Assembly (NCBI GenBank): GCA_003158735.1
Contig: PMLB01000226.1
Span: 687-64,686 of the forward strand
Direction: 5' to 3'
Source of the DNA: Myxococcales bacterium
GTDB taxonomy: Bacteria > Myxococcota_A > Polyangia > Fen-1088
Length of the DNA stretch: 64,000 nucleotides
In this document: piece by piece, positions 26,245 to 46,271 of the stretch
Layout of the letters: the number at the start of each line of letters is the position of its first letter
Position numbering within the stretch: position 1 is the stretch's first letter
Made by a program: the position numbers and the translations under genes
The notes under the pieces: generated by a model
What the model was told of the DNA's origin: nothing
Databases searched by the model: none
Seen by the model: only the letters and a program-made list of their open reading frames with translations

Positions 26245-26265
26245 GGCTCACAGGGGGCTAACGAA

Positions 26266-28561: not shown

Positions 28562-30007
28562 ATGAAGGGAACCGGCAGTCAGCCAGGCTGGTGGCGCCCG
28601 GGCGTGGTCGCGGCAATCGTAGCGGGCGCGCTTTCGATGGGCGCGTGCAGCCGTTCGGGTGGCACTGCGCCCTTGGACGCAGGTGGCGCGACGGCCGGCA
28701 CTGGAGCGGTGGGTGGCGTTGCCAGCACCGGCGGCGGCGTGGCCGCCGGCAGCAGCGCGAGTTCCGCAGAAACTGGTGGCACAGGCGGCTCCTCGGCATC
28801 CGGCGGCACGCTTTCCACCGCTGGCAGCGCGACCGGCGGTTTTGCGACCGGTGGCTCAGCGACGGGTGGCGCGTCTTCGTCAGGTGGAACTGCAGCCGGC
28901 GGCGTGCGTGCGACCGGCGGTTCGGCGCTGGGCGGTGTGGGCGCGACGGGTGGCTCGGCAACCGGCGGCGTGCTTTCGTCAGGCGGAACCGCAGTCGGAG
29001 GATCGAGCGCGACTGGTGGTTCGCCGACGGGCGGCGTGTCGTCGTCAGGCGGAATTGCCACCGCAGGCGTGAGCGCGACCGGCGGTTCTGCGACCGGTGG
29101 CTCGGCGAGAGGTGGCAGCGTGTCTTCCACAGGTGGCAGCGGGACCGCAGGCGTGAGCGCGACTGGTGGTTCGGCGACGGGCGGCACCGGCGGGATCACC
29201 ACGACCGTGGATCGCTTCGGCATTCGCATGCTCTACCCGACACTGGCCAGCGGCAAGCAGTGGTACGCCCAGTGGGACACGCCGGCGCGGACCTTTACGG
29301 GCAAAGATCCGAACGACCCCTGGTTCGACGCCGATCACGGCGATGCCAGCTACAAGGTGGAGGGCACCGGCATCCTGAAGATCACTGGCGGCGTGCCGCG
29401 CATGTATGTCCACGATCCGGCCTTGCTCGACCAGTGGCGAGACGTGGAGATCACCATGTACTTCCAGCGCGTGGCTGACAGCAACATAGCCTGGGGTGGA
29501 ATGGTGGCCATGGCCCGCACCAATCACGGAACCATCGGGCAGGAGACGGTGAACCTATGCGATACCCGCGGCATCGACGCGCGCATGCGCTACGATGGGC
29601 ACATCGATTTCGAGAAGGAGACCAGTCATCCGCAGTCGACCGCCATTCTCAACCAGACCCAGTGGGCCGGCGGAATGCCCTTCAATCAATGGATCGGCTA
29701 CAAACACGTGGTCTACGACCTGCCTGATGGCACTGTGAAACAGGAGCTCTATCTGGACAACAGCGATGGCGCCGGCGGCGGAAGCTGGGTGAAAATCAAT
29801 GAGCACATCGATGCCGGCAGCGATTTCGGCGTAAATGGCACCGCCTGCGCCGCCGGCATCGATCCGGCCATGAAGCTCACCCACGACCCGACCCGCACCG
29901 GTTCGGAAAGCGGCAAGCCCAACATCACCGTGTATTTTCGCAGCGACGGGGTGGGCAGCGACGGACTTTGGTACAAGAAGGGCAGCATCAGGGAAATCGC
30001 GCCCTAG
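28562..30007 (+). CDS. lipoprotein with about 190-aa Gly/Thr/Ser/Ala stalk and C-terminal beta-sandwich-like domain (possible polysaccharide lyase/binding; unknown)
   Basis: Lipobox LSMGAC. Degenerate (S/A)(A/S)TGG repeats span aa ~40-225. The globular C-terminus (…[13 protein letters not shown]…[21 protein letters not shown]) is vaguely reminiscent of jelly-roll lyases but not diagnostic. Confidence 0.6.
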
Positions 30008-30785: not shown

Positions 30786-32618
30786 ATGAGCGCTCGCAAC
30801 AAGCGCGGAAAGCGGGCGGCCGGCAAGCCTGGGCCGGCGCTGGTCAGCGGCGACGAGAAAGACGCGCCCGTCCGCGAGCCGGAAGTGCAAGCGGCCGAGC
30901 CCGAGTCGGGCGGCGACAAGGGCGGAGCCCAGACCGGTGCGGTGATCACCGAAGCCAGGCCAGCCGAGGAGACGCTTCGCGAGACCGAGCAGCCTGCCAA
31001 GGCCCTTCCTGACGTCCGCGAGAGGCAAGCCGCTGAGCTGGAGGCTGTCGTCGAAGGCCAGCCGCTTCGCGATGCCAAGCAGCGATTGCAATCCCTGCTT
31101 GATAATTCTCCGCTGGCGCTCATCGAGTGGTCGTCAGTCGACTACCGAATCGTGCAGTGGTCGGATGCGGCCAGCAAAGTCTTTGGCTGGACCGCCGAGG
31201 AGACCATCGGCAAGCGCATCGACGAACTGAACTGGATTCATCCCGCGGACCGGCCGCTGGTGGATCAGGTCGTGGCCGACCTACTCAGCGGCCAATGTCC
31301 GCGCAACGCCCACAAGAACCGCAACGTGCGCAAAGACGGCTCGGTGATTTTCTGCGAATGGTACAACTCCACGCTGCCTGATCCGTCAGGCGGATTCTCG
31401 GTATTGTCACTGGTGCTTGATGCCACCGAGCGCAAGCTGGCCGAGGCATCAGTGCGCGTGGCCGACTTGCAACTGGCCGAGGCCGATCAGCGCAAGAATG
31501 AGTTCTTGGCTGCGCTCGCGCACGAGATGAAGACCCCGCTGGCTCCCATCAAGAACAGCCTGTACGTCCTGGGCCACGCAACCTTGGGGAATGATCCGGC
31601 GCGCCGGGCTCAGGCTGTCATCGAAAGACAGGTGATTCGGCTGGCCCGGCTGGCCAGCGACCTCCTCGACGTGACTCGCATCGCGCGAAACAAAATCAAG
31701 CTTCAGTGCCAACTGCTGGAGCTAAACGGACTGGTGCGGGACACCATAGAGGATCAACGCTCGCTCTTCGACCGGACCGAGGTGCATCTCGAATTCCATC
31801 CCGCGCCCAGACCCGTGCTGGTCAACGCTGACTGGAATCGCCTGGCCCAAGTCATGGTCAACCTTCTGCAGAACGCGGCCAAGTTCACCGGCCGCGGTGG
31901 CGCCACCCTGGTCACTGTCCACGCCGAAAAGGCGGAGAAGCTGGCGGTGGTCCAGGTCGTGGATACGGGAGTGGGCATGGCGCCAGAAATGGTGGCGCGC
32001 TTGTTCCAGCCCTTCAGTCAGGTGGACTCCGCTTTGGACCGCAGCAAGGGCGGACTTGGGCTCGGGCTGGCGCTGATCAATGGGCTGGTCGAATTGCACG
32101 GGGGCAACGTGACGGTCTGCAGTGCGGGACTGGGCCACGGGACGGAGTTCACGGTTCAGCTTCCGCTGCTGACGGAGGAAGCCGCCGCCTCGCCAGCGGA
32201 GAGCGAGCGCGCCGCGAAAGCCCGGCGGCGCGTACTGGTCATCAAGGACGACATCGAAGCGGCCGACAGTCTGCGCGACGGGCTCGCGTCGGGCGAGTAT
32301 GAGGTTGAGGTGGCGTACAACGGCCCGGAAGGAATTGCCAAGGCGCGGGAGTTTAGCCCCGAGGTCGTGCTGTGTGACATGGGGTTGTCGGGAATGGATG
32401 GCTTCGAGGTTGCGCGCGCCTTCAAGGCAGACGAATCACTGAAGGACGTCTTGCTGGTGGCTTTGAGTGACTACGCACTCCCCGAAGATCTGCTGCGAGT
32501 CTCGCAGGCAGGCTTCGCGCACCACATGGCCAAGCCAGCCAGCCTCGAGAAACTGAAAGAGATCTTGGCAGCCCCGCCTGTCCCCAGCGTGCCAGAGGTG
32601 CCAGAGAAAGAAAACTGA
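30786..32618 (+). CDS. hybrid sensor histidine kinase / response regulator (PAS-HisKA-HATPase-REC)
   Basis: PAS region (LALIEWS…), H-box LAALAHEMKTPLAPI, G-boxes DTGVGM and GGLGLGLAL, and a receiver domain RRVLVIKDD…VLCDMGLSGMDG…KP. Confidence 0.9.
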   Translation: MSARNKRGKRAAGKPGPALVSGDEKDAPVREPEVQAAEPESGGDKGGAQTGAVITEARPAEETLRETEQPAKALPDVRERQAAELEAVVEGQPLRDAKQRLQSLLDNSPLALIEWSSVDYRIVQWSDAASKVFGWTAEETIGKRIDELNWIHPADRPLVDQVVADLLSGQCPRNAHKNRNVRKDGSVIFCEWYNSTLPDPSGGFSVLSLVLDATERKLAEASVRVADLQLAEADQRKNEFLAALAHEMKTPLAPIKNSLYVLGHATLGNDPARRAQAVIERQVIRLARLASDLLDVTRIARNKIKLQCQLLELNGLVRDTIEDQRSLFDRTEVHLEFHPAPRPVLVNADWNRLAQVMVNLLQNAAKFTGRGGATLVTVHAEKAEKLAVVQVVDTGVGMAPEMVARLFQPFSQVDSALDRSKGGLGLGLALINGLVELHGGNVTVCSAGLGHGTEFTVQLPLLTEEAAASPAESERAAKARRRVLVIKDDIEAADSLRDGLASGEYEVEVAYNGPEGIAKAREFSPEVVLCDMGLSGMDGFEVARAFKADESLKDVLLVALSDYALPEDLLRVSQAGFAHHMAKPASLEKLKEILAAPPVPSVPEVPEKEN

Positions 32619-33076
32619 TGGCGCATAGTCTTTGTCGCCGGTGGCTGGGATATCTGCTGGCGTCTCCGGTGCGGCGCTTGTTCCAGAATAGATAGAGTTC
32701 CGCCGCTGTCGATGGTGAGCGGGCCCATCCGCTGCCATCTCTGAATGGGTACCACCGCCATACTTGAAAGAGGTCACGCTGTCGTAGACCCAGTTCTTTG
32801 CTCAGGAACACCAACGTTGTCTCGCCTGTTCGAGGTTGGACGCTGATGACGCCCCTGCCTACTGCTGCGCTTCGACGCCTCGGTTTGCCGATCGAGCACG
32901 CCCTGGGCCAGGTGCCGCAGGATGCACTCGACAAAGGCTGCCAGCGGCTGTCGCGCCGCCTCGCGCCAGAGGGACACGCGAAACTACTAGTCTGCCCGCG
33001 TTCCCGGCAGATGTAGGCAAGAATGGCCCCTATCCGGGGACCGCGTTGACCCATTTCGTCGAGTCGCTGTCCCATA

Positions 33077-33112
33077 TATAATGTCAGCCACGCCTTGCAA
33101 GGGCCGTGGCTG
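33077..33112 (+). promoter_or_regulatory. perfect TATAAT hexamer followed by an 8-bp-stem hairpin upstream of the first lyase gene
   Basis: TATAAT lies at 33077-33082. It is followed by CAGCCACG-N12-CGTGGCTG (33085-33112), about 65 nt before the ATG at 33179. I found no convincing -35 at 17-bp spacing. Confidence 0.3.
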
Positions 33113-33178
33113 CATGATGGTCCGGGCCACCGATGCCGGAATCATAACGGCGCCGGCCAGGTCGTAAAGGAGACTCCG

Positions 33179-35191
33179 ATGAATTCCGCAGAACGCTTGT
33201 CGAAGAAGGTTCGCTGTCATTCGCTGATGTCTTGGCTGGCGCTCGGCGTGGGCCTGTTCGCCGCCAGGGGTGCATTGGCCGCGGAGTACTACGTGTCCCC
33301 CACGGGCAGCGATTCGAATCCTGGCACCCAAGCCAGCCCCTGGGGCACCGTGCAGAAAGCGGCCAGCACGGCAGCGGCTGGAGACACGGTCTGGCTGCGT
33401 GGCGGAACCTACAGCCCCAGCGCCGGCATCACGTTTTCGAAGAGCGGAACGTCGGACACTAACCGAATCAACTACTTTGCCTACCAAGGCGAAGTCCCGA
33501 AGATCGACTTCTCCAATATGAACGTATCAAGCAGCGGCTACAGCATGGGTATCACGGTCTCGGGTAACTGGCTGCATTTCAAGGGGATCGAGGAATGCTG
33601 CCTCAAGGAGACCACGTACGCCAACAACGGTTGGGATGTGAGCGGCAGCAACGATATTTTTGAGTTGCTGAACAATCACCACAACCAGGGCAACGGGATC
33701 TTCATGGGCACCAAGACTGGGGGGGGCAACCTCATCCTCAATTGTGATGGACACGACAATTACGATCCGACAACGACCCAAGGCGACGGACAGAATGCCG
33801 ACGGCTTCGGCGTTCACTACCAAACCAGCGGCGCCACCACCATCATCAGGGGCTGCCGATCGTGGTGGAACTCGGACGATGGCTACGATCTGATTAACCA
33901 AGAGGTTCCGGTCACGGTTGAAAACTCTTGGGCCTTTGGCTGTGGGTACTCCAATTACGGTACCGGCAGGCCCGCAGACGGAAATGGCAACGGCTTCAAG
34001 ATGGGGAGCAGCAAGACCGGTATCAGGCACCTCGTCCAGAACAATGTTGCCTGGGGAAACAAAGCGAACGGGTTCTATGCCAACCACTCCTCGGGCGGAA
34101 ACACTTGGTACAACAATACCTCGTTTCAGAACGGGACCCAATTCAACATGCTGGCCAGCACTTGGGATTCCGCCGGCAATCGAACGGACGGCGTGACCCT
34201 GACAGGAACCAAAGTCCACATTATGCGGAACAACATCGGTTTTCCCAACAAGAACACCGACATGAATGGCGTCGACACCCAATTCAACAGCTGGGACTTG
34301 AATATCACTCCGAAGGTCAGTGATTTTCTCAGCACAACAGATCCGAGCGTATCGGGTACGGGAGCGACGATAGAGACGAGTTCACCGGCACTCGGACCCC
34401 GTCAGGCCGACGGCAGTCTGCCCAATGTGGACTTCATGAAGCTGGCTGCTGGCAGCCAGATGATCGACAAGGGCACGGATGTTCAACTTCCATTCGTGGG
34501 CGCGGCTCCGGACCTCGGCGCCTACGAATATGGAGCCACTGGCGGCACGCCAACAGGCGGTGTCACTGCGGCCGGCGGGGCGACGGCAACCGGCGGAGCC
34601 ACCGGAGCCGGCGGCGCAACCACAGCAACCGGCGGCAAGACCGGGGGCGGCGGCGCAACCACGGCAACCGGCGGCTCGACCACGCCAACCGGTGGCGCAA
34701 CCACGGCAACCGGTGGCAAGACCGGAGGCGGCGGCGCAACCACTGCAACCGGCGGGAAGACTGCAGGTGGCGGCAGCACAGGAGCTGGCGGGGTCACGGC
34801 ACTCGGCGGCGCGCCGGGAACCGGTGGCGACACCGGAGCTGGCGGTGTGACAGAAACAGGTGGCACCAGTGGCGTGGTTCAGTCTGGGGGCGCCGTCCCA
34901 GTGGGCGGCACGGAGGAGACCGGCGGCAGCGTCGTGACCGGCGGAGAGACAGCAACTGGCGGAGTGCCGGGCGGCGCCGGCGCCAGTGGCCCAGGTGAGA
35001 GCGGGGGCAATGTGGTCACCGGCGGAACTCCGCACCCCGGCAGCACAGGTGGCGCCACGACCTCGACGGAAGCCGGCCAGACCAGTAGCGGCTGCTCCTG
35101 TCGGATGGCCGGACGCCAGGCTGCGGGCTATCCCGGCTTCGCCCTGCTTGGGCTTCTGGTTTTCGCTCTTCGTCTTCGCAAGAGGCGCTAG
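33179..35191 (+). CDS. secreted right-handed beta-helix lyase (pectate lyase family 9-like) with Gly/Thr stalk and MYXO-CTERM-type tail, copy A
   Basis: Start at the ATG after AAAGGAG, followed by a signal peptide. N-terminal module AEYYVSPTGSDSNPGT…GDTVWLRGGTY. Beta-helix motifs NADGFGVH, GCRSWWNSDDGYD, ENSWAFG and GNGNGFKMGSSKTG. About 200-aa (A/T)TGG stalk. Tail SGCSCRMAGRQAAGYPGFALLGLLVFALRLRKRR. Confidence 0.7.
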   Translation: MNSAERLSKKVRCHSLMSWLALGVGLFAARGALAAEYYVSPTGSDSNPGTQASPWGTVQKAASTAAAGDTVWLRGGTYSPSAGITFSKSGTSDTNRINYFAYQGEVPKIDFSNMNVSSSGYSMGITVSGNWLHFKGIEECCLKETTYANNGWDVSGSNDIFELLNNHHNQGNGIFMGTKTGGGNLILNCDGHDNYDPTTTQGDGQNADGFGVHYQTSGATTIIRGCRSWWNSDDGYDLINQEVPVTVENSWAFGCGYSNYGTGRPADGNGNGFKMGSSKTGIRHLVQNNVAWGNKANGFYANHSSGGNTWYNNTSFQNGTQFNMLASTWDSAGNRTDGVTLTGTKVHIMRNNIGFPNKNTDMNGVDTQFNSWDLNITPKVSDFLSTTDPSVSGTGATIETSSPALGPRQADGSLPNVDFMKLAAGSQMIDKGTDVQLPFVGAAPDLGAYEYGATGGTPTGGVTAAGGATATGGATGAGGATTATGGKTGGGGATTATGGSTTPTGGATTATGGKTGGGGATTATGGKTAGGGSTGAGGVTALGGAPGTGGDTGAGGVTETGGTSGVVQSGGAVPVGGTEETGGSVVTGGETATGGVPGGAGASGPGESGGNVVTGGTPHPGSTGGATTSTEAGQTSSGCSCRMAGRQAAGYPGFALLGLLVFALRLRKRR

Positions 35192-35407
35192 CGGCCCTGC
35201 TGCGTCAGTTCTTCGATTCACCGGCGGGCAAGTGGGCCCCGCTCGGCGGGGCAACCTGTGACCGCGCCAATCTTCCGATCCGCGTTAGCCATTTGTCGGG
35301 CCACCGCTGACTCGATTGATGGTGCCCCTTCCCCTATACTGATGGGATCCGTCTGTGAGCAGCAGCCCAAGCCGTTGGATTCCCGTAGCGCACCAAAGGA
35401 GCCCTTG

Positions 35408-37414
35408 ATGAAAGCCGCAAGAAGACTGTCCACCAAGGTGAAGCGACTCTCGCTGCTGTTCGCTCTTGTGTTCGGCCTGGGCCTTTTCGCCGCCAGCCAA
35501 GCGCTAGCCACGGAGTACTACGTGGCCACCACCGGCAGCGATTCGAATCCCGGCACTCTTGCCGCGCCCTTTGCCACCTTGCAGAAGGGGGCCGACACAG
35601 CGGTGGCTGGAGACACCGTCTGGATCCGTGGCGGGACGTACAAAATCACGACGCCCAAAACCAGTGGCGCTGGCATCGAGCTCTCGAAGAGCGGAACATC
35701 GGATACCAACCGCATCAAATACTGGGCCTATCCAGGTGAGACCCCGCTTTTCGACTTCTCCAACCTGCAGATCTCAACCAGCGGCTATACCTTTGGCTTC
35801 GTGATCAGCGGCAGCTGGGTACATCTCAAGGGAATCGAAGAGTGCTGCGTCCCGATGAACAGTTACGCCAACAACGGGTTTGCGAGCGATGGCACCAACA
35901 ACATCTATGAGTTGTTGAACGCGCACAACAACCAAGGCAGCGGGATTCAAATCGGTGGCGGGAACCAAGCCATCAATTGTGATTCGCACGACAACTACGA
36001 TCCGACTTCGCCACAGGGCGATGGGCAGAATGCCGATGGCTTCGGTGTCCACGGCCAGACCAGCGGTCCCAGCACGATTATTAGGGGCTGCCGGGCGTGG
36101 TGGAACTCGGACGATGGTTACGACTTCATCAACCAGGAAGTTCCGGTCACCATCGAAAACTCCTGGGCCTTCGGCGCTGGGTTCGCCAATTACGGTACCA
36201 CCCGGCCCTCATCGGGGAATGGCAACGGCTTCAAGATGGGGAGCAGCAAGACAGGCATCAGGCACCTCATCCAGAACAACGTTGCCTGGGGGAACAAGGC
36301 CAACGGTTTCTATGCCAACCACTCCTCGGGTGGGAATACTTGGTACAACAATACATCGTTCCAAAATGGAACTCAGTACAACATGCTGGCGAGCACGTGG
36401 AGTGAACCCAACGGCAAAGGTACAAGAACGGACGGCGTCAAGCTGACCGGGGACAAGGCCCACATACTGAGGAACAACGTTGGCTATCCTAACAAGAACG
36501 AGTACATGGACGCTGCCACTTATGGGGTCGACAGCCAATTCAACGCTTGGGATCTGAATATCACACCCAAGGCCAGTGATTTCCTTAGCATCACCGATCC
36601 GAGCGTGTCGGGTACGGGACAGGCCATAGAAACGACTTCACCCGCGCTGGGCCCCCGCCAGGCCGACGGCAGCCTTCCGAACGTGGATTTTCTGAAACTC
36701 GCGGCTGGCAGCCAGATGATCGATAAGGGCACGAACGTTCAACTTCCATTTGTGGGTGCGGCTCCGGACCTGGGTGCCTATGAATATGGAGCCACCGGCG
36801 GCACGCCAACCGGCGGTGTCACCGGGGCCGGCGGGACGACGGCGACCGGCGGAGCCACGGGAGCTGCCGGAGCGACGGGAACTGGCGGCAAGAGCGGAAG
36901 CGGCGGAACTACGGGAACCGGTGGCAAGACCGGGGGCGGCGGTGCAACTGCGGCAACCGGCGGGAAGACCGCAAGCAGCAGCGCACCGGGAGCCGGCGGC
37001 AGTCTAGCAACTGGCGGAGTCACGCTCCTCGGTGGCACACCGGGAATCGGTGGCGACACGGGAGCCGGCGGCGTGACAGAAACAGGCGGAACCAGTGGCG
37101 TGGTTGACACCGGGGGCGCGGTCGCACCGGGCGGCGCGGAGAACGGCGGCAGCGCCGTGATCGGCGGAGTTATCGCCACTGGTGGAGTGCCAGGAGGCGC
37201 CGGTGTCACTGCCCCGGTCGAGACGGGGGGAGCGGTGGTCACGGGCGGAACTCCGCAGCCCGGCAGCACAGGTGGCACGACGACTTCGACGGAAGCCGGC
37301 CAGACGAGCAGCGGCTGCTCCTGTCGGATTGCCGGGCGCCAGGCCACGGGTTCCACCGGGTTCGCCCTGCTCGGGCTTCTGGTGTTCGCCCTCCGGCTGC
37401 GCAGACGGCGCTAG
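35408..37414 (+). CDS. PL9-like beta-helix lyase with Gly/Thr stalk and MYXO-CTERM-type tail, copy B
   Basis: Start MKAARRLS after AAAGGAG. Same motifs as copy A. Tail SGCSCRIAGRQATGSTGFALLGLLVFALRLRRRR. Confidence 0.7.
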   Translation: MKAARRLSTKVKRLSLLFALVFGLGLFAASQALATEYYVATTGSDSNPGTLAAPFATLQKGADTAVAGDTVWIRGGTYKITTPKTSGAGIELSKSGTSDTNRIKYWAYPGETPLFDFSNLQISTSGYTFGFVISGSWVHLKGIEECCVPMNSYANNGFASDGTNNIYELLNAHNNQGSGIQIGGGNQAINCDSHDNYDPTSPQGDGQNADGFGVHGQTSGPSTIIRGCRAWWNSDDGYDFINQEVPVTIENSWAFGAGFANYGTTRPSSGNGNGFKMGSSKTGIRHLIQNNVAWGNKANGFYANHSSGGNTWYNNTSFQNGTQYNMLASTWSEPNGKGTRTDGVKLTGDKAHILRNNVGYPNKNEYMDAATYGVDSQFNAWDLNITPKASDFLSITDPSVSGTGQAIETTSPALGPRQADGSLPNVDFLKLAAGSQMIDKGTNVQLPFVGAAPDLGAYEYGATGGTPTGGVTGAGGTTATGGATGAAGATGTGGKSGSGGTTGTGGKTGGGGATAATGGKTASSSAPGAGGSLATGGVTLLGGTPGIGGDTGAGGVTETGGTSGVVDTGGAVAPGGAENGGSAVIGGVIATGGVPGGAGVTAPVETGGAVVTGGTPQPGSTGGTTTSTEAGQTSSGCSCRIAGRQATGSTGFALLGLLVFALRLRRRR

Positions 37415-37626
37415 CGCTTCGGCGTCAGTTTTTCGATTCAGCGGCGGGCAAGCGGGCCCGTCTGCGGGGCAACTTGCGGCTGGGCCAAACTTCCGGTTCG
37501 CGTTAGCCGTTTCGTCGGGCCAGCGCTGACCCGATTGAGGCAGTCCTTTCCCCTATGTCCTTAGGAACTGTCTGTGAGCAGCTGCCCAAGCTGTTGGATT
37601 CCCGTAGCGCACCAAAGGAGCCCTTG

Positions 37627-39615
37627 ATGAAATCCGCAAGAAAGCTGTCCGCCAAGGTTGAGCGACTCTCGCTGCTGTTCGGTCTTGTGTTCGGCCTGGG
37701 CCTTTTCGCCGCCAAGCAAGCACTGGCCACGGAATACTACGTGGCCCCCACGGGCAGCGATTCAAATCCCGGCACCCAAGCCAGCCCCTTTGCCACCCTG
37801 CAGAAGGGGGCCGACACAGCGGTGGCTGGAGACACCGTCTGGCTCCGCGGCGGGACGTACAAGACCACGACGCCCAAATCGAGTGGCGCTGGAATCGAGC
37901 TCTCGAAGAGCGGCACGTCGGATACCAACCGAATCAAGTACTGGGCCTATGCAGGTGAGACCCCGCTTTTCGACTTCTCCAACCTGCAGATAGCAAACGG
38001 CGCCTATACCTTTGGCATCGTGATCGGCGGCAGCTGGGTGCATCTCAAAGGGCTCGAGGAGTGCTGCGTCCCGATGAACACTAAGGCCAACAACGGGATT
38101 GCGAACAACGGCAGTAACAACATTCTCGAGTTGTTGAACGCGCACAACAACCAAGGCAGCGGGATTCAGGTCGGTAGCGGGTCGGGGAACCAAGCCATCA
38201 ATTGCGATTCGCACGACAACTACGATCCGGGTTCACAAAACGGAGGCGGCGCCGGAGAGGATGCCGACGGCTTCGGTGTGCACGGCGGGAGCGGGACCGT
38301 CGGCACCACAATCAGGGGCTGCCGGTCGTGGTGGAACTCTGACGATGGTTACGATTTCCTCAGCGACGAATCTCCGGTCACCATCGAGAACTCCTGGGCC
38401 ATGGGCGCTGGATACTTCAATTATGGTACCGGCTCGGCAGGAAATGGCAATGGCTTCAAGATCGGCAGCAGCAAGACCGGCATCAGGCACACCGTCATGA
38501 ACTGCGTCGCCTGGAAAAATAAGGCAAACGGATTTTACGCCAATCACTCCTCGGGTGGGAACACCTGGTACAACAACACGTCGTTTCAGAATGGAACCCA
38601 GTACAACATGATGGCCAGTACTTGGAGTGAACCCAACGGCGGCGGCACCAGAACGGACGGCGTCATCCTGACGGGGGACAAGGTACACATAATGAGGAAC
38701 AACATCGGGTATCCCAACAAGAACCAGTACATTACCGGGTACGGGGTGGACACGGCATTCAACACCTGGGATCTGAATATCACGCCAGCAGCCAAGGATT
38801 TCCTCAGCATCACCGATCCAAGCCTGACGGTGACGGGTAAGGCCTTGGAGACGGTTTCACCGGCGATGGGACCCCGCCAAGCCGACGGCAGTTTGCCCAA
38901 TGTTGACTTTCTGAAACTGGCTGCGGGCAGCGCCATGATCGACAAAGGCACGAACGTCCAACTTCCATTTGTGGGTGCGGCTCCGGACCTGGGTGCCTAC
39001 GAATATGGAGCCACTGGCGGTTCGGCAACCGGCGGAACGACAGGGGCTGGCGGAGCCACGGGAGCTGCCGGAGCGACGGGAACTGGCGGCAAGAGCGGAA
39101 GCGGCGGAACTACGGGAACCGTTGGCAAGACCGGCAGCGGCGGTGCAACCACGGCCACCGGCGGGAAGACCGCAAGCAGCAGCGCACCGGGAGCCGGCGG
39201 CAGTCTAGCAACTGGCGGAGTCACGCTCCTCGGTGGCACACCGGGAATCGGTGGCGACACAGGAGCCGGCGGCGTGACAGAAACAGGCGGAACCAGTGGC
39301 GTGGTTGACACCGGGGGCGCGGTCGCACCGGGCGGCGCGGAGAACGGCGGCAGCGCCGTGATCGGCGGAGTTATCGCCACTGGTGGAGTGCCAGGAGGCG
39401 CCGGTGTCACTGCCCCGGTCGAGACGGGGGGAGCGGTGGTCACGGGCGGAACTCCGCAGCCCGGCAGCACAGGTGGCACGACGACTTCGACGGAAGCCGG
39501 CCAGACGAGCAGCGGCTGCTCCTGTCGGATTGCCGGGCGCCAGGCCACGGGCTCCACCGGGTTCGCCCTGCTCGGGCTTCTGGTGTTCGCCCTCCGGCTG
39601 CGCAGACGGCGCTAG
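37627..39615 (+). CDS. PL9-like beta-helix lyase with Gly/Thr stalk and MYXO-CTERM-type tail, copy C
   Basis: Start MKSARKLS after AAAGGAG. Same motifs as copy A. The C-terminal about 200 aa are essentially identical to copy B. Confidence 0.7.
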   Translation: MKSARKLSAKVERLSLLFGLVFGLGLFAAKQALATEYYVAPTGSDSNPGTQASPFATLQKGADTAVAGDTVWLRGGTYKTTTPKSSGAGIELSKSGTSDTNRIKYWAYAGETPLFDFSNLQIANGAYTFGIVIGGSWVHLKGLEECCVPMNTKANNGIANNGSNNILELLNAHNNQGSGIQVGSGSGNQAINCDSHDNYDPGSQNGGGAGEDADGFGVHGGSGTVGTTIRGCRSWWNSDDGYDFLSDESPVTIENSWAMGAGYFNYGTGSAGNGNGFKIGSSKTGIRHTVMNCVAWKNKANGFYANHSSGGNTWYNNTSFQNGTQYNMMASTWSEPNGGGTRTDGVILTGDKVHIMRNNIGYPNKNQYITGYGVDTAFNTWDLNITPAAKDFLSITDPSLTVTGKALETVSPAMGPRQADGSLPNVDFLKLAAGSAMIDKGTNVQLPFVGAAPDLGAYEYGATGGSATGGTTGAGGATGAAGATGTGGKSGSGGTTGTVGKTGSGGATTATGGKTASSSAPGAGGSLATGGVTLLGGTPGIGGDTGAGGVTETGGTSGVVDTGGAVAPGGAENGGSAVIGGVIATGGVPGGAGVTAPVETGGAVVTGGTPQPGSTGGTTTSTEAGQTSSGCSCRIAGRQATGSTGFALLGLLVFALRLRRRR

Positions 39616-39827
39616 CGCTTCGGCGTCAGTCTTTCGATTCAGCGGCGGGCAAGCGAGCCCGTCTGCGGGGCAACTTGCGGCTGGGCCAAGCTTCCGGTTC
39701 GCGTTAGCCGTTTCGTCGGGCCAGCGCTGACCCGATTGAGGCAGTCCTTTCCCCTATGTCCCTAGGAACTGTCTGTGAGCAGCTGCCCAAGCCGTTGGAT
39801 TCCCGTAGCGCACCAAAGGAGCCCCTG

Positions 39828-41852
39828 ATGAAATCCGCAAGAAAGCTGTCCGCCAAGGTGGAGCGACTCTCGCTGCTGTCGGGTCTTGTGTTCGCCCTGG
39901 GACTTTTGGCCGCCAAGCAAGCACTGGCCGCGGAGTACTACGTGGCCACCACGGGCAGCGATTCGAATCCTGGCACCCAAGCCAGCCCTTTTGCCACCCT
40001 GAGCAAGGGGGCCAGCACCGCGGGTCCGGGAGACACGGTCTACATCGGCGGAGGAACCTACTATCCCGGCGGTGGCTTCACGTTCTCGAAGAGCGGAACC
40101 TCGGACACCAACCGGATCAAGTACTGGGCCTCCCCGGGTGAGAAACCGGTCTTCGACTTTTCCAAAGCCAGCGGTCATCCCAACGGGTTCACTGTCACGG
40201 GTAGCTGGCTGCATTTCAAAGGAATCGAGATCTGCAATCTCACGGAGGACACCAGCGCCATCAACGCCATAGTGATCAGTAACGCCAGCAACGACATCAT
40301 GGAGTTGATGAACACGCATCACAATGCCGGCAGCGGGATATTCATCAGCCACGGAAGTGGGGGGCACCTGTACCTCAATTGCGATTCGCACGACAACTAC
40401 GATCCGACCTCAGCGCAAGGCGACGGACAGAATGCCGATGGCTTCGGTGTCCACTACCAAGCAGCCGGGGACGGGACCAGCACGACTATCAGGGGCTGCC
40501 GGGCGTGGTGGAACTCGGACGATGGTTACGATTTCATCAACCAGGAATTTCCGGTCACCATTGAAAACTCCTGGGCCTTTGGTTCTGGGTTCTCCAATTA
40601 CGGTGCTGGCAGGCCCGCCGACGGAAATGGCAACGGCTTCAAGATAGGGAGTAGCAAGACCGGCATCAGGCATCTGGTTCAGAACAACGTTGCCTGGGGG
40701 TGCAAGGCCAGCGGGTTCTATGCCAATCACTCCTCGGGCGGGAACACCTGGTACAACAATACGTCGTTCCAAAATGGAACCCAATTCAACCTGCTGGCGA
40801 GTACTTGGAGTGAACCCAACGGCGGCGGCACAAGAACGGACGGCGTCACCCTGACGGGGGCGAAAGCGCACATCATGAGGAACAACATCGCCTTCCCCAA
40901 CAAGAACGAATACATCACCGGGTACGGGGTCGACACCCAGTTCAACAGTTGGGATCTGAATATCACTCCAGCGGCCAAGGATTTTCTCAGCATCGTGGAT
41001 CCCAGCGTCTCGGGGACGGGAGCGACGATAGAGACGACTTCACCCGCGCTGGGCCCGCGCCAGGCAGACGGCAGCTTGCCCAATGTGGACTTCATGAAAC
41101 TGGCTGCTGGCAGCGCCATGATCGACAAAGGCACGGACGTCAAACTGCCATTTGTGGGTTCGGCCCCGGACTTGGGCGCCTATGAATATGGAGCCACGGG
41201 CGGCACCGCAACCGGTGGTGTCACCGGGGCCGGCGGAGCCACGGGCGCTGCCGGAGCTACGGGAGCGGCTGGAGCCACGGGAACCGGCGGAACCACGGGC
41301 GCTGCCGGAGCTACGGGAACTGGCGGCAAGACCGGGAGCGGCGGCGCCACGGTGACCGGCGGGAAGACTGGGAGCGGCGGTGCAACCACGAGAACCGGCG
41401 GAAACACCGGGAGCGCAGGTGCACCGGGAACCGGCGGCACTCCGGGAACGGGCGGGGGCGCGGTACTCGGCGGAGCACCGGGAACCGGTGGCAACACGGG
41501 AGCAGGCGGCGTGACAGAAACAGGTGGAACAACTGGCGTGGTTGACAGCGGGGGCATGGTCCCACTCGGCGGAGCGGAGACCGGCGGCAGCGTCGTCATT
41601 GGCGGAGAAACAGCGACCGGCGGTGTGCCGGGAGGCGCCGGCGACACTGGCCCGGCCGAGACCGGGGGCGCAGCGATCACGGGCGGAACTCCGCAACCTG
41701 GCAGCACGGGCGGCACGACGGGCTCGACCGAAGCCGGCCAGACCAGTGGCGGCTGCTCCTGTCGGATCGCCGGACGACCGGCTACGGGCTCAACTGGGTT
41801 AGCCCTGCTCGGGCTACTCGTGTTCGCCCTTCGGTTTCGGAGAAGACGCTAA
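39828..41852 (+). CDS. PL9-like beta-helix lyase with Gly/Thr stalk and MYXO-CTERM-type tail, copy D
   Basis: Start MKSARKLS after AAAGGAG. This is the most divergent catalytic region of the four. Tail GGCSCRIAGRPATGSTGLALLGLLVFALRFRRRR. Confidence 0.7.
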   Translation: MKSARKLSAKVERLSLLSGLVFALGLLAAKQALAAEYYVATTGSDSNPGTQASPFATLSKGASTAGPGDTVYIGGGTYYPGGGFTFSKSGTSDTNRIKYWASPGEKPVFDFSKASGHPNGFTVTGSWLHFKGIEICNLTEDTSAINAIVISNASNDIMELMNTHHNAGSGIFISHGSGGHLYLNCDSHDNYDPTSAQGDGQNADGFGVHYQAAGDGTSTTIRGCRAWWNSDDGYDFINQEFPVTIENSWAFGSGFSNYGAGRPADGNGNGFKIGSSKTGIRHLVQNNVAWGCKASGFYANHSSGGNTWYNNTSFQNGTQFNLLASTWSEPNGGGTRTDGVTLTGAKAHIMRNNIAFPNKNEYITGYGVDTQFNSWDLNITPAAKDFLSIVDPSVSGTGATIETTSPALGPRQADGSLPNVDFMKLAAGSAMIDKGTDVKLPFVGSAPDLGAYEYGATGGTATGGVTGAGGATGAAGATGAAGATGTGGTTGAAGATGTGGKTGSGGATVTGGKTGSGGATTRTGGNTGSAGAPGTGGTPGTGGGAVLGGAPGTGGNTGAGGVTETGGTTGVVDSGGMVPLGGAETGGSVVIGGETATGGVPGGAGDTGPAETGGAAITGGTPQPGSTGGTTGSTEAGQTSGGCSCRIAGRPATGSTGLALLGLLVFALRFRRRR

Positions 41853-41929
41853 CTGCGACCGGTGCGCAGGCCACATTCCACGGGGCAAAGCAAGGCGCTC
41901 GCTGCTCAAGGCTGCTACACTGCCGGGCT

Positions 41930-43099
41930 ATGCCGGGCTCGCGCAGCGGGCGCCCCGAGGCGCCCTTCCAGATTGCCCAAGTCGACGGGGCCGACGCCAG
42001 CGATCTCTTCGTGCACGCCATTCCTGAGTCGGCCGCCAAGGGTGATCGAGCCCAGTTTCGAGCCATGGCGCAAACCTCCTTGGAGGGTCTGCGTGCCTTG
42101 GGAGCTGTTCCGGCGGACGTGGCGGCCGGCTGGGTGTACTTGCGGGAGCAGCCTTGCTGGAGCATGCGCCACGAGTTGGCCGCGGCTTGGAACGAACCTG
42201 ACGCGGAACGGTTGCCGCTGACTTTCCTGATCCAGCCCCCGGCCGCAGGCCATCGCTTTTGCGAGATGCAGCTGCACGCTTCGCGGCGTCGCTCCGACCG
42301 TTGCAGCGTGGTGTGGAAGGGATCCCTGCCCGGGCCGCTGTGCACCACGGTGTTGCGCGCCGGCGCCCGCCACCTGCGCATGCTGTCGCTGACACCGCGC
42401 TTGAGCACCGGCGGGAACATCGCGCTGGCCGATCTGGCCTACGACATGTTCGCCTCCGCGTCGCATGCGCTCACCGATCGGGGACTCTCCTTCCTCGATG
42501 TGGTGCGGACCTGGATCTACCTGCGGGATATCGATCGCGACTACGCGGCCTTCAACCAAGGCCGCCGACGCTTTTTCGAAGCCGCGGGTCTGGTTCGCTT
42601 TCCCGCCAGCACAGGGATCCAGGCTGCCCTCGCCGGTAGCGGGTACCCCTTGGCCATGGACTTGTACGTGGTAGGTGGAGGCGGCGAAACCACCATCCAT
42701 GCGATGAACCCCGCGTCTATGGGTGAGGCTCGGGACTATGGTTCGTTTTTCGCCCGCGGCTCGCTCTTGCGCGACTCCCGGCACAGCCTGGTATTTCTGT
42801 CGGGGACAGCCAGCATCGATCGGCAGGGGCGCATCGTGGCCCCCGGCGATGCCAACGGGCAGTTGCGCTGCATGCTCGCTCACGCGGCTGGGGTGCTGGA
42901 GCAGGCTGGACTTGGCTTGGCCGACGCCGTGAGCGTGACCGCCTACCTCAAACGGGCATCCCTGCTGTCGGAGTTTCGTGGGGCCGCGCAGGCCGCGGGC
43001 CTGCCGGCATCCGTGCCGACCGCCATTGTGGTCGCGGATATTTGTCGGCCCGAATGGCTGTGCGAGATCGAGCTAGTCGCCGGCCGGCCTCTGGGATGA
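41930..43099 (+). CDS. RidA/YjgF-superfamily protein with tandem YjgF-like halves; FkbO/Hyg5/XanB2-type chorismatase candidate
   Basis: 389 aa. Two RidA-like segments are present: LSFLDVVRTWIYLRDIDRDYAAFNQGRRRFF, and LGLADAVSVTAYLKRASLLSEF…CEIELVA. Size and layout resemble XanB2-type enzymes. Confidence 0.45.
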   Translation: MPGSRSGRPEAPFQIAQVDGADASDLFVHAIPESAAKGDRAQFRAMAQTSLEGLRALGAVPADVAAGWVYLREQPCWSMRHELAAAWNEPDAERLPLTFLIQPPAAGHRFCEMQLHASRRRSDRCSVVWKGSLPGPLCTTVLRAGARHLRMLSLTPRLSTGGNIALADLAYDMFASASHALTDRGLSFLDVVRTWIYLRDIDRDYAAFNQGRRRFFEAAGLVRFPASTGIQAALAGSGYPLAMDLYVVGGGGETTIHAMNPASMGEARDYGSFFARGSLLRDSRHSLVFLSGTASIDRQGRIVAPGDANGQLRCMLAHAAGVLEQAGLGLADAVSVTAYLKRASLLSEFRGAAQAAGLPASVPTAIVVADICRPEWLCEIELVAGRPLG

Positions 43100-43307: not shown

Positions 43308-46271
43308 ATGAGGGTAGGCGCTGCACTCGGATATCTGACACTCGCCGCGGCGGTTCTTGCGGCGGCATGTACTGGCGACAATGGCAAGGCGGGCCAGGCA
43401 GGAACCTCCTGCACTGTCACCACCTATGCTGACGGGACCGAGACGATCAGGTGTGGTGCCGACGGCGGAATTGCCACGGTGTCGAACGGCAAGTCGTGCA
43501 CCGTCACGGAGGTCGATGGCGGCACCCAGATTGAGTGCGAAGATGGCACCTCGTCGTTCGTGGCCAGCGGGGCGGACGGGACCAACGGCACCAACGGAGC
43601 GCCAGGCCAGTCCTGCAACGTCGTGAGCAATGGCGACGGAACCCGGACCGTAACCTGCCCGGCTGGCGATGGCGGCACGGTCACGTTCAACGTCAAAGAC
43701 GCCCTGGTCAGCTTCGCTACCATGAGCGCCGACAGCAAGGCCGCGCTTGACCTTCAGATCACTGTCACCAGCGTCACCGTCCCCGCCAGTGGCCAGCCCG
43801 TGGTTGCCTTCAGGGTCACTGACGGCAGTGGCAATGTAGTGACGAAGTTGCCTCCGGCTGACATGCGTTTTGCGCTGCTCAAGCTGGTTCCCGCCACCAC
43901 CAAGGTGGCCGCCAACCTTGCGCTTGTCGGAGTGAATGGCAGCGCCAACGACACCTGGGTCAGCTACATGGCGGCCAATGCCACCAGCACCGCCGGAACG
44001 GAGTCCGCGGCCACTGCAACTGCCACCGGCGGCACGCTCACCGACAACGGCGATGGAACCTATTCCTACGCCTTCCTCAAGAAGGTCACCGATCCAGTCA
44101 ACGCGGGGACCACCTACGATCCGGCCGCCACGCACCGCCTGACCATGATTGTGTCCGAGTCGGGCAACCCGTTTGCCCCGGTTAACGTGGTCAAGGACTT
44201 CATTCCCGCCACGGGCAAGGACGTCACCGGTCAGGCCGAGAACACCGACGGCGCTTCCTGCCTCGAGTGCCACAGCTCGTTCCGCGCCAAGGCTGGCGGG
44301 ACCGGTGCCTTCCACGGCGGAGCTCGCTACGACCTGCGCATCTGTGTGACCTGCCACAACGATCAGCGGCGCTTCACCGCGATCCCGGGAACCGCGACCA
44401 CCCCGGCGGTTGACCTGGACGGGGCCGGTGTGGTGGACGCCACAACCGGCGCATGGGCGGGCAATGCCGTCAAGGTGAACGGCGAGGCGTACATCAACCT
44501 GCCGGTCTTCGTTCACAAGATCCACATGGGTGACCAGCTCACGCTCAACGGCGGCCAGTACACGGCCATGGCAACCCCCTACGATGTAACTTTTCCGCAG
44601 GACGCGGGCAACTGCGCCAAGTGCCACCGCGGCGTGGCCCAGGCCAACAACTTCCAGAACAAGCCCAGCCGACGCGCCTGTGGCGCCTGTCACGATGACA
44701 TCAGCTTCCTGGCAGCGGCGGCGGTGCCTGCCAAGCGCAAGGCGCACGATGGCGGCCCGATGGCGGACGACTCGAATTGCACGCTTTGCCACCCGCCGAC
44801 TGGACCTGCGACCAAGGCGGGAGTCAGCGTGGTCGATGCCCACATGACTGTCGCAGCGCCTGACCCGCTGGCCACCTGGCTGGGCGGCAGCAACGCCAAC
44901 ACCAACGCTGGCTATGTCCCGGCCGCGGGCTTCACGCCGACCGGAGAGGCCGCGCTCAGCTACTTCGTGAAGAGCGTCACCCGTGATGCCAACAGCAATC
45001 CCAGCATCGTGTTCCGCTTCCTCCTCAACGGCACCACGCCGGTGGTGTTCAATGACCCAAGCGCGGCGACAGAAATCATGGACGGCTTCGTGGGATCGCC
45101 CAGCGTGTACTTCGTGTTTGCCGTGCCCCAGGATAGCATCACGGCGCCGGCTGACTTCAACGCCAGTGCCAGTGGCTATATCAAGACCATCTGGAACGGG
45201 ACCGCGACGGGCACGGGTGCTGGGACCATGACCTTCGACGCGACCACCGGCTTTTACACCATCACGCTCACTGGTGTGACTGTCCCCGACAACGCGACCA
45301 TGCTGACCGGTGGGGTCGGATACACCTACAGCCTGGGCAGTGCCCCGCCGCTCACTCAGATCAACTTGCCGGCCTTCCCGTACGGCGACTCCACAGTCAT
45401 CAAGGGCTGCATTGTCGGCCAGAAGTGCGGCGGTCTTGTTCTGCCGACTCCCGACGTCTCGGCGGTGGCGACCGATGCGGCCAGCGGCAAGGCCTACGCC
45501 GCCCGACGCCTGATCGTCAAGAATTCCAACTGCAACGCTTGCCACGCGCAGTTGGGCGTCAATCCGACCTTCCACTCTGGTCAGCGCAACGATGCGCCGA
45601 CCTGCGCCTTCTGCCATAAGCCGAACCTGACCGACGGCGGCTGGTCCGTCAGTTCGTCGACGTTCATTCACAGCATTCACGGGGCTTCCGAACGGACCGT
45701 GGGCTTCAACTGGGAGGCGGCCTGCCCGACCGGGACCACCTATCCGACCACCTGTACGACCGCCAATGCCGATCCGTACTTCGCCAACGTGACCTACCCG
45801 GGCATCCTCAACAACTGCGAGCAGTGCCACCTTCCCGGCACCTACGACTTCAGCGCCGCGGCGTCGGCTTCTGCGGTTTCCAATCTGCTGATGTCCACAG
45901 TGGCCGCGGGCGTGATCAAGCCGAACATTTCCACCTCGCCCTATGTGAAGACCGACGGCACTGATTACGGGAATGTGTTCGCAACGGCCAATGTGACCAG
46001 CGGAACCCTTGGTACCACCGCTTGCACGAGCACAGCTCCTTGCGTGTGTTCGCCCACGGCGCCCTGTGTGGCCGCTGCCACGACCCTGGTGAAGTCGCCC
46101 ATCGCTGCCGCCTGTTCTTCGTGCCACGATGCCCCCACCGCGATCTCGCACATGCAGATGATGGGCGGATCGTTCTACGAGACGCGCGCCGTGGCCCAGA
46201 CCAAGGCCGAGCAGTGCCTGATGTGCCATGGTCCCGGCACCGTGGCAGCCATCGCCCTGGTCCATCAGTAG
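43308..46271 (+). CDS. decahaem c-type cytochrome lipoprotein (MtrC/OmcA-family-like)
   Basis: AAGGAG RBS. Lipobox LAAAC. There are ten CxxCH motifs: CLECH, CVTCH, CAKCH, CGACH, CTLCH, CNACH, CAFCH, CEQCH, CSSCH and CLMCH. 987 aa. Confidence 0.85.
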   Translation: MRVGAALGYLTLAAAVLAAACTGDNGKAGQAGTSCTVTTYADGTETIRCGADGGIATVSNGKSCTVTEVDGGTQIECEDGTSSFVASGADGTNGTNGAPGQSCNVVSNGDGTRTVTCPAGDGGTVTFNVKDALVSFATMSADSKAALDLQITVTSVTVPASGQPVVAFRVTDGSGNVVTKLPPADMRFALLKLVPATTKVAANLALVGVNGSANDTWVSYMAANATSTAGTESAATATATGGTLTDNGDGTYSYAFLKKVTDPVNAGTTYDPAATHRLTMIVSESGNPFAPVNVVKDFIPATGKDVTGQAENTDGASCLECHSSFRAKAGGTGAFHGGARYDLRICVTCHNDQRRFTAIPGTATTPAVDLDGAGVVDATTGAWAGNAVKVNGEAYINLPVFVHKIHMGDQLTLNGGQYTAMATPYDVTFPQDAGNCAKCHRGVAQANNFQNKPSRRACGACHDDISFLAAAAVPAKRKAHDGGPMADDSNCTLCHPPTGPATKAGVSVVDAHMTVAAPDPLATWLGGSNANTNAGYVPAAGFTPTGEAALSYFVKSVTRDANSNPSIVFRFLLNGTTPVVFNDPSAATEIMDGFVGSPSVYFVFAVPQDSITAPADFNASASGYIKTIWNGTATGTGAGTMTFDATTGFYTITLTGVTVPDNATMLTGGVGYTYSLGSAPPLTQINLPAFPYGDSTVIKGCIVGQKCGGLVLPTPDVSAVATDAASGKAYAARRLIVKNSNCNACHAQLGVNPTFHSGQRNDAPTCAFCHKPNLTDGGWSVSSSTFIHSIHGASERTVGFNWEAACPTGTTYPTTCTTANADPYFANVTYPGILNNCEQCHLPGTYDFSAAASASAVSNLLMSTVAAGVIKPNISTSPYVKTDGTDYGNVFATANVTSGTLGTTACTSTAPCVCSPTAPCVAAATTLVKSPIAAACSSCHDAPTAISHMQMMGGSFYETRAVAQTKAEQCLMCHGPGTVAAIALVHQ

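Follow-up and report, generated by a model that had tools for sequence, protein, structure and literature searches.

In Dickeya, enzymes of polysaccharide lyase family 9 (PL9) are released free by the Out type II system and are not known to have a stalk or a C-terminal sorting tag. The PL9 enzyme BT4170 of Bacteroides thetaiotaomicron is anchored by an N-terminal lipoprotein signal and is encoded within a Sus-like polysaccharide utilization locus. It is known that BT4170 is a surface-exposed outer-membrane lyase, which starts the breakdown of rhamnogalacturonan I (RG-I) in Bacteroides (PMC8002723), and that the PL9 active site consists of a Ca-1 site on coils 5–6 and a lysine base on coil 7 (PMC6627557). 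For proteins with the C-terminal MYXO-CTERM tag, the model from Myxococcus xanthus comprises Sec export, retention by the helix of the tag, modification of the Cys, cleavage by a myxosortase and type II secretion to the surface; cleavage and surface anchoring were shown there for TraA and MXAN_4924 only (PMC11980579). Adhesins and proteases are the known cargo of this pathway in Myxococcus. Here we describe a tandem array of four genes, P1 to P4, at positions 33179–41852 of a 64,000-nt stretch of DNA from a Myxococcales bacterium (hereafter the window; C171:687–64686). The window belongs to a metagenome-assembled genome (MAG) of 6.49 Mb in 467 contigs, 82% complete and 6% contaminated. We consider it probable that the four products are PL9 lyases, probably acting on pectic backbones, and that they are displayed via the MYXO-CTERM/myxosortase route as part of a pectinolytic set.

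PL9 cores and MYXO-CTERM tails of the four paralogs

The four open reading frames (ORFs) are co-directional on the plus strand and encode products of 662–674 aa. An earlier reading of the letters of the window, referred to here as the original prediction, had described four co-directional paralogs, each composed of a signal peptide, a core, a Gly/Thr stalk and a tail, and all of these parts and all of the motifs quoted there were present. P2–P4 are 72–77% identical to P1, and the mean column identity over the four copies was 83%. Each copy starts with a signal peptide of 35 aa, which has a basic n-region followed by a hydrophobic core and ends in A-x-A. Lipoprotein export and Tat export were rejected, since neither a lipobox Cys nor a twin-arginine motif was seen by eye in the signal peptides. 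The core of 417–426 aa is followed by a stalk of 168–186 aa (G 35–39%, T 20–24%, A 14–15%), encoded by degenerate 18/36-nt repeats, and by a 33-aa tail, GCSCR(I/M)AGR...ALLGLLVFALR(L/F)R(K/R)RR.

The PL9-type lyase core proposed in the original prediction was recovered by profile searches. Pfam PF22842 (Pel9A-like beta-helix) matched all four copies with E values from 1e-32 to 2e-40, and the NCBIfam PelN model NF041899 aligned nearly end to end (positions 8–435 of 437) at 305–346 bits. The only strong solved relatives were two PL9 structures, the Pel9A pectate lyase 1RU4 (E 6e-47) and the BT4170 rhamnogalacturonan lyase 5OLQ (E 3e-44). When the copies were aligned with 1RU4, five residues fell on identical ones, namely the ADGFG Asp, the two Asp of NSDDG, the YD(F/L) Asp and the GNGNGFK Lys, and the same five were invariant in the four copies and in 30 homologs. 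We take them to be the corresponding positions in the Pel9A numbering published by Jenkins et al. (2004). The original prediction had also called the N-terminus DUF1565-like. The resemblance stood; PF07602 fell short of E 0.01 in all four copies, and was over its cut-off in Fibrobacter homologs.

P2 was modelled with AlphaFold2 from an alignment of 30 sequences. Residues 36–330 formed a beta-helix, in which the predicted local distance difference test (pLDDT) of the blocks was mostly 75–96. The stalk showed pLDDT values of 21–30 and no secondary structure, as for a disordered segment. A C-terminal helix was placed at residues 650–667 with low pLDDT (below 50 up to residue 655 and in 663–668; block means 47–48). 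In a Foldseek search with this model, the top matches were 5OLR/5OLQ (TM score by target 0.73), followed by 1RU4 (0.66). The ratio of nonsynonymous to synonymous divergence (dN/dS) in the core was 0.17–0.30 for paralog pairs and 0.10–0.22 for ortholog pairs, which indicates that all four copies are kept as functional enzymes by purifying selection. The four genes are thus predicted, from homology and the P2 model, to encode Ca2+-dependent beta-elimination lyases of PL9. A non-catalytic adhesin reading was rejected in view of the invariant catalytic residues and the dN/dS of 0.10–0.30.

The tails had been assigned to the MYXO-CTERM type, and this assignment was borne out by three copies in the whole-protein scan with TIGR03901 and by all four in the six-frame genome scan. 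TIGR03901, which has a cut-off of 20 bits, covered the last 33–35 residues, and the whole-protein scores of P2–P4 were 20.4, 20.5 and 21.5 bits. In the genome scan the four tails reached 22.5, 26.9, 26.9 and 28 bits, and no residue followed the match. The order of the elements is GCSC, the hydrophobic FALLGLLVFAL (Kyte–Doolittle value of the best 15-residue window, 1.95–2.05) and R(K/R)RR, and both Cys were invariant in 30 homologs. No rival sorting-signal model was obtained at E ≤ 1 in the NCBIfam scan of the four proteins.

Components of the sorting pathway were found elsewhere in the genome. TIGR03901 gave 34 matches over its cut-off, about 29 of them at a true C-terminus. The original prediction had noted that no myxosortase gene lies in the window, and a profile search of the genome found none there or on its contig. 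The check for one elsewhere yielded a 257-aa CPBP-protease ORF on contig C4 (L001:1489–2262, minus strand), which scored 134–136 bits against the myxosortase core model NF040914 (cut-off 100) and was the single strong match to it in the genome; the myxosortase matches of the genome were on contigs C4 and C152 only. The type II secretion secretin GspD was present (443 bits against a cut-off of 351). The genes for the tagged proteins, the myxosortase and GspD are spread over different contigs of the MAG.

From these parts a route to the cell surface can be proposed. The proteins would cross the inner membrane through Sec, as their A-x-A signal peptides suggest. By analogy with the TraA model of M. 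xanthus, they would then be held there by the C-terminal helix of the tag, the invariant Cys would be modified and the tail cut by the myxosortase-family CPBP protease of the genome, and type II secretion would bring them to the cell surface (PMC11980579). The disordered Gly/Thr stalk of about 170–186 aa would space the beta-helix off the membrane, so that the polymer would be cut beside the cell. Unsaturated oligomers would be imported and then processed by the GH88/GH105, GH28, CE8 and KduI proteins encoded elsewhere in the genome. Alternatively, the enzymes could end in the medium as free extracellular lyases, the tail being a transient inner-membrane hold or being clipped off. The type II system of M. 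xanthus releases TraA that lacks its tag, and defects of surface localisation as well as shedding have been discussed (PMC11980579); a role as a protease-sensitive linker is also conceivable for the long stalk. We regard this alternative as very unlikely, because 30 homologs show the whole tripartite tag, both Cys included, to be invariant, the P2 and P3 tails are kept identical by gene conversion, and the tag is common to about 29 proteins of a genome that also encodes a myxosortase.

Probable substrate and the pectin-related genes of the genome

A wider pectin or rhamnogalacturonan theme had been suspected in the original prediction, and it was found on other contigs and beside the loci of relatives. 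The genome encodes KduI, about five GH88/GH105 genes, three GH28 and one CE8 pectinesterase. On contig C395 (111–119.6 kb; L083:8373–16620), a tandem pair of PL11 genes, each with its own MYXO-CTERM tail, lies beside an MFS transporter and KduI. In three sister-species loci (L003, L009 and L036), a PL11 rhamnogalacturonan lyase gene stands between the histidine kinase and the PL9 array, and GH105 or PL11 genes adjoin the homologs in Chitinispirillaceae and Fibrobacter loci. The hint that had originally been taken from an SGNH-esterase-like fragment at 2–280 did not survive: its GDSL_2 match was sub-threshold (20.9 against 32.9 bits), and it lies 33 kb away with unrelated genes between. It was rejected as local pectin evidence.

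The MYXO-CTERM proteins of the genome include at least 10 pectin-type lyases (6 PL9 and 4 PL11). The six tagged PL9 proteins are the four array copies and fragments at the ends of contigs C457 and C327, the N-terminal halves of which are probably represented by the two ends of C367. The tag is also carried by a SASA-type esterase, a GH29 fucosidase that has a discoidin domain, a PHB-depolymerase-type esterase and a weak GH43, and the remaining tagged proteins have TSP3, kelch or Cys-rich repeats, or are of unknown type. Roughly one third to one half of all tagged proteins belong to the pectin/RG-I lyases, esterases and glycosidases. This inventory suggests that the array is one module of a genome-wide, surface-anchored pectinolytic set. 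The most likely substrate would be pectic backbones, that is, homogalacturonan and/or RG-I.

Several points weigh against a pectinolytic, surface-displayed array. None of its neighbours in the window is pectin-related; they are a PAS/hybrid histidine kinase, an FkbO/RidA-like protein, an MtrC/OmcA-like multihaem cytochrome, an AAA/DUF4143 protein and an FG-GAP protein. The PL11 gene of the relatives is absent from the window, in which the interval from the kinase to P1 (32618–33179) is only about 560 nt. The structures 1RU4 and 5OLQ score almost equally, and pectate and RG-I specificity are not separable by homology. PL9 also contains a thiopeptidoglycan lyase. All four copies missed the PelN equivalog cut-off of 740 bits; their scores lie so far under it that the four proteins are classed as PelN homologs and not as PelN orthologs. 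In the P2 model, the C-terminal third of the core (residues 330–460) is of low confidence. With respect to sorting, the tail of P1 scored 16.5 bits in the whole-protein TIGR03901 scan, under the cut-off. The myxosortase sits on a different contig from the array, in a MAG of limited completeness and some contamination, and it fell under all subfamily cut-offs (143.8 against 180, 145 against 195, 167.5 against 250 and 105.2 against 325 bits; the named subfamilies are MrtX, MrtC, MrtP and MrtZ). The C4 protein may represent an additional myxosortase subtype in this Polyangia lineage. Even for M. xanthus, the lipidation of the MYXO-CTERM Cys is so far hypothetical (PMC11980579).

The setting of the array in the window and the breadth of the family leave room for another substrate. 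The four proteins could be true PL9 lyases with MYXO-CTERM tags that act on a microbial uronic-acid polymer, such as the exopolysaccharide or sheath of prey or neighbours or the cells' own matrix, and serve in predation or biofilm remodelling. Myxobacteria are often predators, and the PL9 family has a lyase for a bacterial sheath polymer. In M. xanthus, the MYXO-CTERM cargo has been described to comprise adhesins and hydrolases that serve social interactions and predation (PMC11980579). The placement of PL11 next to the array in three sister-species loci, and of GH105/PL11 next to homologs in other phyla, speaks for pectin instead, as does the full downstream pectin set (GH28, CE8, GH88/105 and KduI) of the genome. 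Moreover, outside the myxobacteria the nearest cores are those of Fibrobacter and Chitinispirillaceae, which degrade plant fibre. We consider a microbial substrate unlikely on this balance. A literature search combining Myxococcota, pectate lyase and peat returned nothing relevant.

Some further details of these loci were recorded. With the PL11 pair on C395, this genome has two tandem arrays of tagged pectin lyases. The stretches of the sister loci compared with the kinase–P1 interval were L009:5511–9670 and L003:3165–7385; the PL11 gene there encodes 839 aa in L009 and is split in L003 into two overlapping ORFs, probably owing to a frameshift or an assembly error. The PL9 paralogs with MYXO-CTERM tails that are broken at C457 (end), C367 (both ends) and C327 (start) are apparently a divergent pair. 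The tails of the C457 and C327 paralogs match L031 and L034/L035; in the fen_1158 MAG a single contig carries both L031 and L035.

History, distribution and layout of the array

A protein search gave 3208 matches at E ≤ 1e-10, of which the best 120 were listed, and a genome search gave 80 loci. Many of the best 120 homologs were labelled 'MYXO-CTERM domain-containing protein' by JGI. Most of the 80 loci belonged to fen, peat and soil MAGs of Polyangia, Myxococcales and Polyangiaceae, and nearly all of the Polyangia loci whose ORF reaches a stop had the Cys, hydrophobic and Arg tail. When counted by genome, PF22842 was found in 8 of 11 genomes of the same genus (1–5 copies). Among genomes of other genera within the family it occurred in 3 of 8, and among those of other families within the class in 0 of 12. 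The original prediction had called a surface-tethered fourfold lyase array unusual. This was not borne out, since the architecture is common in Polyangia homologs and already labelled by JGI, sister species have arrays of 2–3 copies, and BT4170 is a precedent.

To describe the history of the array, a maximum-likelihood tree of 79 cores was built and rooted at the midpoint. The P1 clade held copies from three fen MAGs, the closest being L007 (fen Myxococcales MAG, 94% in the core). L003_12197 (89% in the core), L008 and L014 grouped with P4, and L003_10106, L005 and L004 with P2 and P3. The P1, P4 and P2/P3 clades were each starred, and the 14-member array clade had 100/100 support. Synonymous divergence (dS) was 0.50–0.87 between paralogs, and 0.36–0.47 (P1, P3, P4) or 0.50–0.54 (P2) between orthologs, so that paralog values exceeded ortholog values except in the youngest pair, P2/P3. 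It is therefore concluded from the dS comparison that the duplications are older than the species and that P1, P2/P3 and P4 have been retained as distinct lineages. The three retained lineages suggest divided substrate preferences.

The ends of the repeated unit behaved differently from the cores. P3 and P4 share 94–97% identity over the leader and first codons, and P2 and P3 share 95–100% over the last ~500 nt (stalk and tail), whereas core identity between copies in 150-nt windows ranged from about 61% to 90%. This pattern indicates that leaders, stalks and tails are homogenised by gene conversion while the cores diverge.

The order of genes is shared with sister species as kinase, PL9 array, FkbO-like gene and cytochrome, with 2–3 PL9 copies in the same locus. 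Because the MAG is fragmented (467 contigs, 6% contamination), identical tracts between copies are long and other PL9 paralogs break at contig ends, the fourfold array might be a metagenome assembly artefact, formed by chimeric joins of strain variants of one or two genes. This is extremely improbable. The copies fall into three different starred ortholog clades and are not strain-level variants, and their cores are clearly distinct, with the paralog dS given above. In addition, the L003 species has a collinear 3-copy array with the same flanks on an independently assembled 433-kb contig, and the fen_1158 contigs L009 and L008 show the same ends.

Homologous cores were also found outside the Myxococcota. 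Those of Fibrobacter and Chitinispirillaceae were 46–63% identical and lacked the MYXO-CTERM tail, and the Fibrobacter clade nested among Polyangia rows in the 79-core tree. In a tree rooted at the midpoint, this nesting implies that the PL9 core passed from one phylum to another, in either direction. The tails of the Fibrobacter, Chitinispirillaceae and 'planctomycete' homologs gave no significant NCBIfam or Pfam model. A T9SS-type identity, suspected from the look of these non-myxobacterial tails, was not supported: the best match, to Por_Secre_tail in a single protein, reached 13.7 bits where the cut-off is 23.

Two of these homologs deserve separate mention. On a 4.2-kb contig binned as an uncultured planctomycete (L004:285–1892), a core with 82% identity to P2 is placed by the tree within the P2/P3 clade. 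Its stalk is absent, and it has a different, non-Cys tail ending in GVYIEKHLMEAGR. This gene is either on a mis-binned contig or the product of a recent transfer in which the tail was replaced. In a Fibrobacter sp. MAG (L037:8327–11359), a 1010-aa protein is a fusion of the PL9 core with GH43 and has a basic C-terminal tail.

The coordinates of the array are given in Table 1. The first position of each gene is the probable start, which lies 6–7 nt downstream of an invariant AAAGGAG, and the P2 start is the same as in public database gene calls. The repeat unit is about 2.2 kb (spacing 2177–2256 nt) and includes a spacer of ~210 nt. The leader/spacer before P2 is conserved across the three spacers and in the sister-species locus L003:9786–10000. 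A promoter and terminator consensus scan of 32600–42100 found five promoter-like sites, all on the minus strand, and terminator-like sites no commoner than in shuffles. The GC content at third codon positions (GC3) was 0.72–0.73 in the four genes and 0.74–0.87 in the neighbours. A recent foreign origin was not adopted from GC3, because this gap is slight and too weak an argument.

Table 1. Positions of the genes, their parts, motifs and spacers in the window
Feature	Positions	Strand	Parts and remarks
P1, 670 aa	33179–35191	+	signal peptide 33179–33283; PL9 core 33284–34534; Gly/Thr stalk 34535–35089; MYXO-CTERM tail 35090–35188
P1 motifs	ADGFG 33797, NSDDG 33869, GNGNGFK 33980	+	
Leader/spacer before P2, ~215 nt	35192–35407	+	part of repeated unit; ends AAAGGAG N6 ATG
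P2, 668 aa	35408–37414	+	signal peptide 35408–35512; PL9 core 35513–36790; stalk 36791–37312; MYXO-CTERM tail 37313–37411
P2 motifs	ADGFG 36032, NSDDG 36104, GNGNGFK 36215	+	
Leader/spacer before P3	37415–37626	+	
P3, 662 aa	37627–39615	+	signal peptide 37627–37731; PL9 core 37732–39009; stalk 39010–39513; MYXO-CTERM tail 39514–39612
P3 motifs	ADGFG 38263, NSDDG 38335, GNGNGFK 38440	+	
Leader/spacer before P4	39616–39827	+	94–97% identical to P3 leader and 5' end
P4, 674 aa	39828–41852	+	signal peptide 39828–39932; PL9 core 39933–41192; stalk 41193–41750; MYXO-CTERM tail 41751–41849
P4 motifs	ADGFG 40434, NSDDG 40512, GNGNGFK 40623	+	

Downstream of the array, 41930–43099 (+) encodes a protein of 389 aa with two RidA/L-PSP-like matches along with a weak match to the FkbO/Hyg5 chorismatase N-terminus, which is syntenic in L003 and L008 (82–93% identity). 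It is followed at 43308–46271 (+) by a 987-aa MtrC/OmcA-like multihaem cytochrome (PF22113, PF22112), found in the same place downstream of the array in L003 and L008. Two tandem paralogs of 553–560 aa at 24562–27927 (−) and a 481-aa protein at 28562–30007 (+) had no Pfam match at E ≤ 0.001.

Meaning of the array and comparison with known systems

The array is a tidy, real case assembled from known parts and not a new kind of system. What it adds is lyases as a major class of myxosortase cargo in the genus, divergent cores beside homogenised ends, and tails that differ between phyla. It offers a natural example in which the myxosortase pathway, characterised only recently, has polysaccharide lyases as its cargo, in an uncultured genus common in fen, peat and soil metagenomes. 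If the products are surface-bound pectin/RG-I lyases, these bacteria would be plant-polymer degraders and not only predators, and the products of cleavage would be kept near the cell. The array is also a small model in which tandem paralogs diverge in the core while gene conversion keeps the export and anchor modules uniform. Its practical use is limited: the four related PL9 cores could be screened for specificity, and the natural MYXO-CTERM tails could serve as reporters of myxosortase specificity.

A broader picture can be drawn, in which a Polyangia genus of fen, peat and soil has made MYXO-CTERM the main display route for its saprotrophic enzymes, with a pectinolytic brush of enzymes on long, possibly glycosylated Gly/Thr-rich stalks on the outer membrane. 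If the anchor is a lipid, the enzymes could in this picture also pass between kin cells by outer-membrane exchange, and the same core with other tails in Fibrobacterota would make the family a natural case of tag swapping after inter-phylum transfer. We offer this as speculation and hold it, taken as a whole, to be rather unlikely.

Among the described systems, Pel9A/PelL and PelN of Dickeya (Erwinia chrysanthemi) share with the array full-length core homology, the right-handed beta-helix, the Ca-1 Asp ligands and the Lys base. They differ in sequence, at ~30–40% identity to the array cores and with array scores far under the PelN cut-off. BT4170, the PL9 RG-I lyase of B. thetaiotaomicron (5OLQ/5OLR), is the best structural match to the P2 model and, with the proposed logic of cutting at the surface, the nearest parallel in function. 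In contrast to BT4170, the array uses a C-terminal MYXO-CTERM tag behind a Gly/Thr stalk, has no SusC/D genes and is amplified in tandem.

The uncharacterised PL9-like proteins of Fibrobacter and Chitinispirillaceae resemble the array in their cores, which nest among those of Polyangia, and in the PL11/GH105 neighbours of some loci. They differ in lacking the Cys, helix and Arg tail; their own tails are often basic, and one protein is a GH43 fusion. The myxosortase papers searched name adhesins, hydrolases and proteases as cargo and do not mention lyases. The MYXO-CTERM/myxosortase system of M. xanthus (MrtX; cargo TraA and MepA) agrees with the present genome in the tripartite C-terminal tail, the N-terminal signal peptide, dozens of tagged proteins, a core CPBP protease and a type II secretin (PMC11980579). 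Compared with that system, the protease here lies outside MrtX, MrtC, MrtP and MrtZ, and the cargo consists of polysaccharide lyases.

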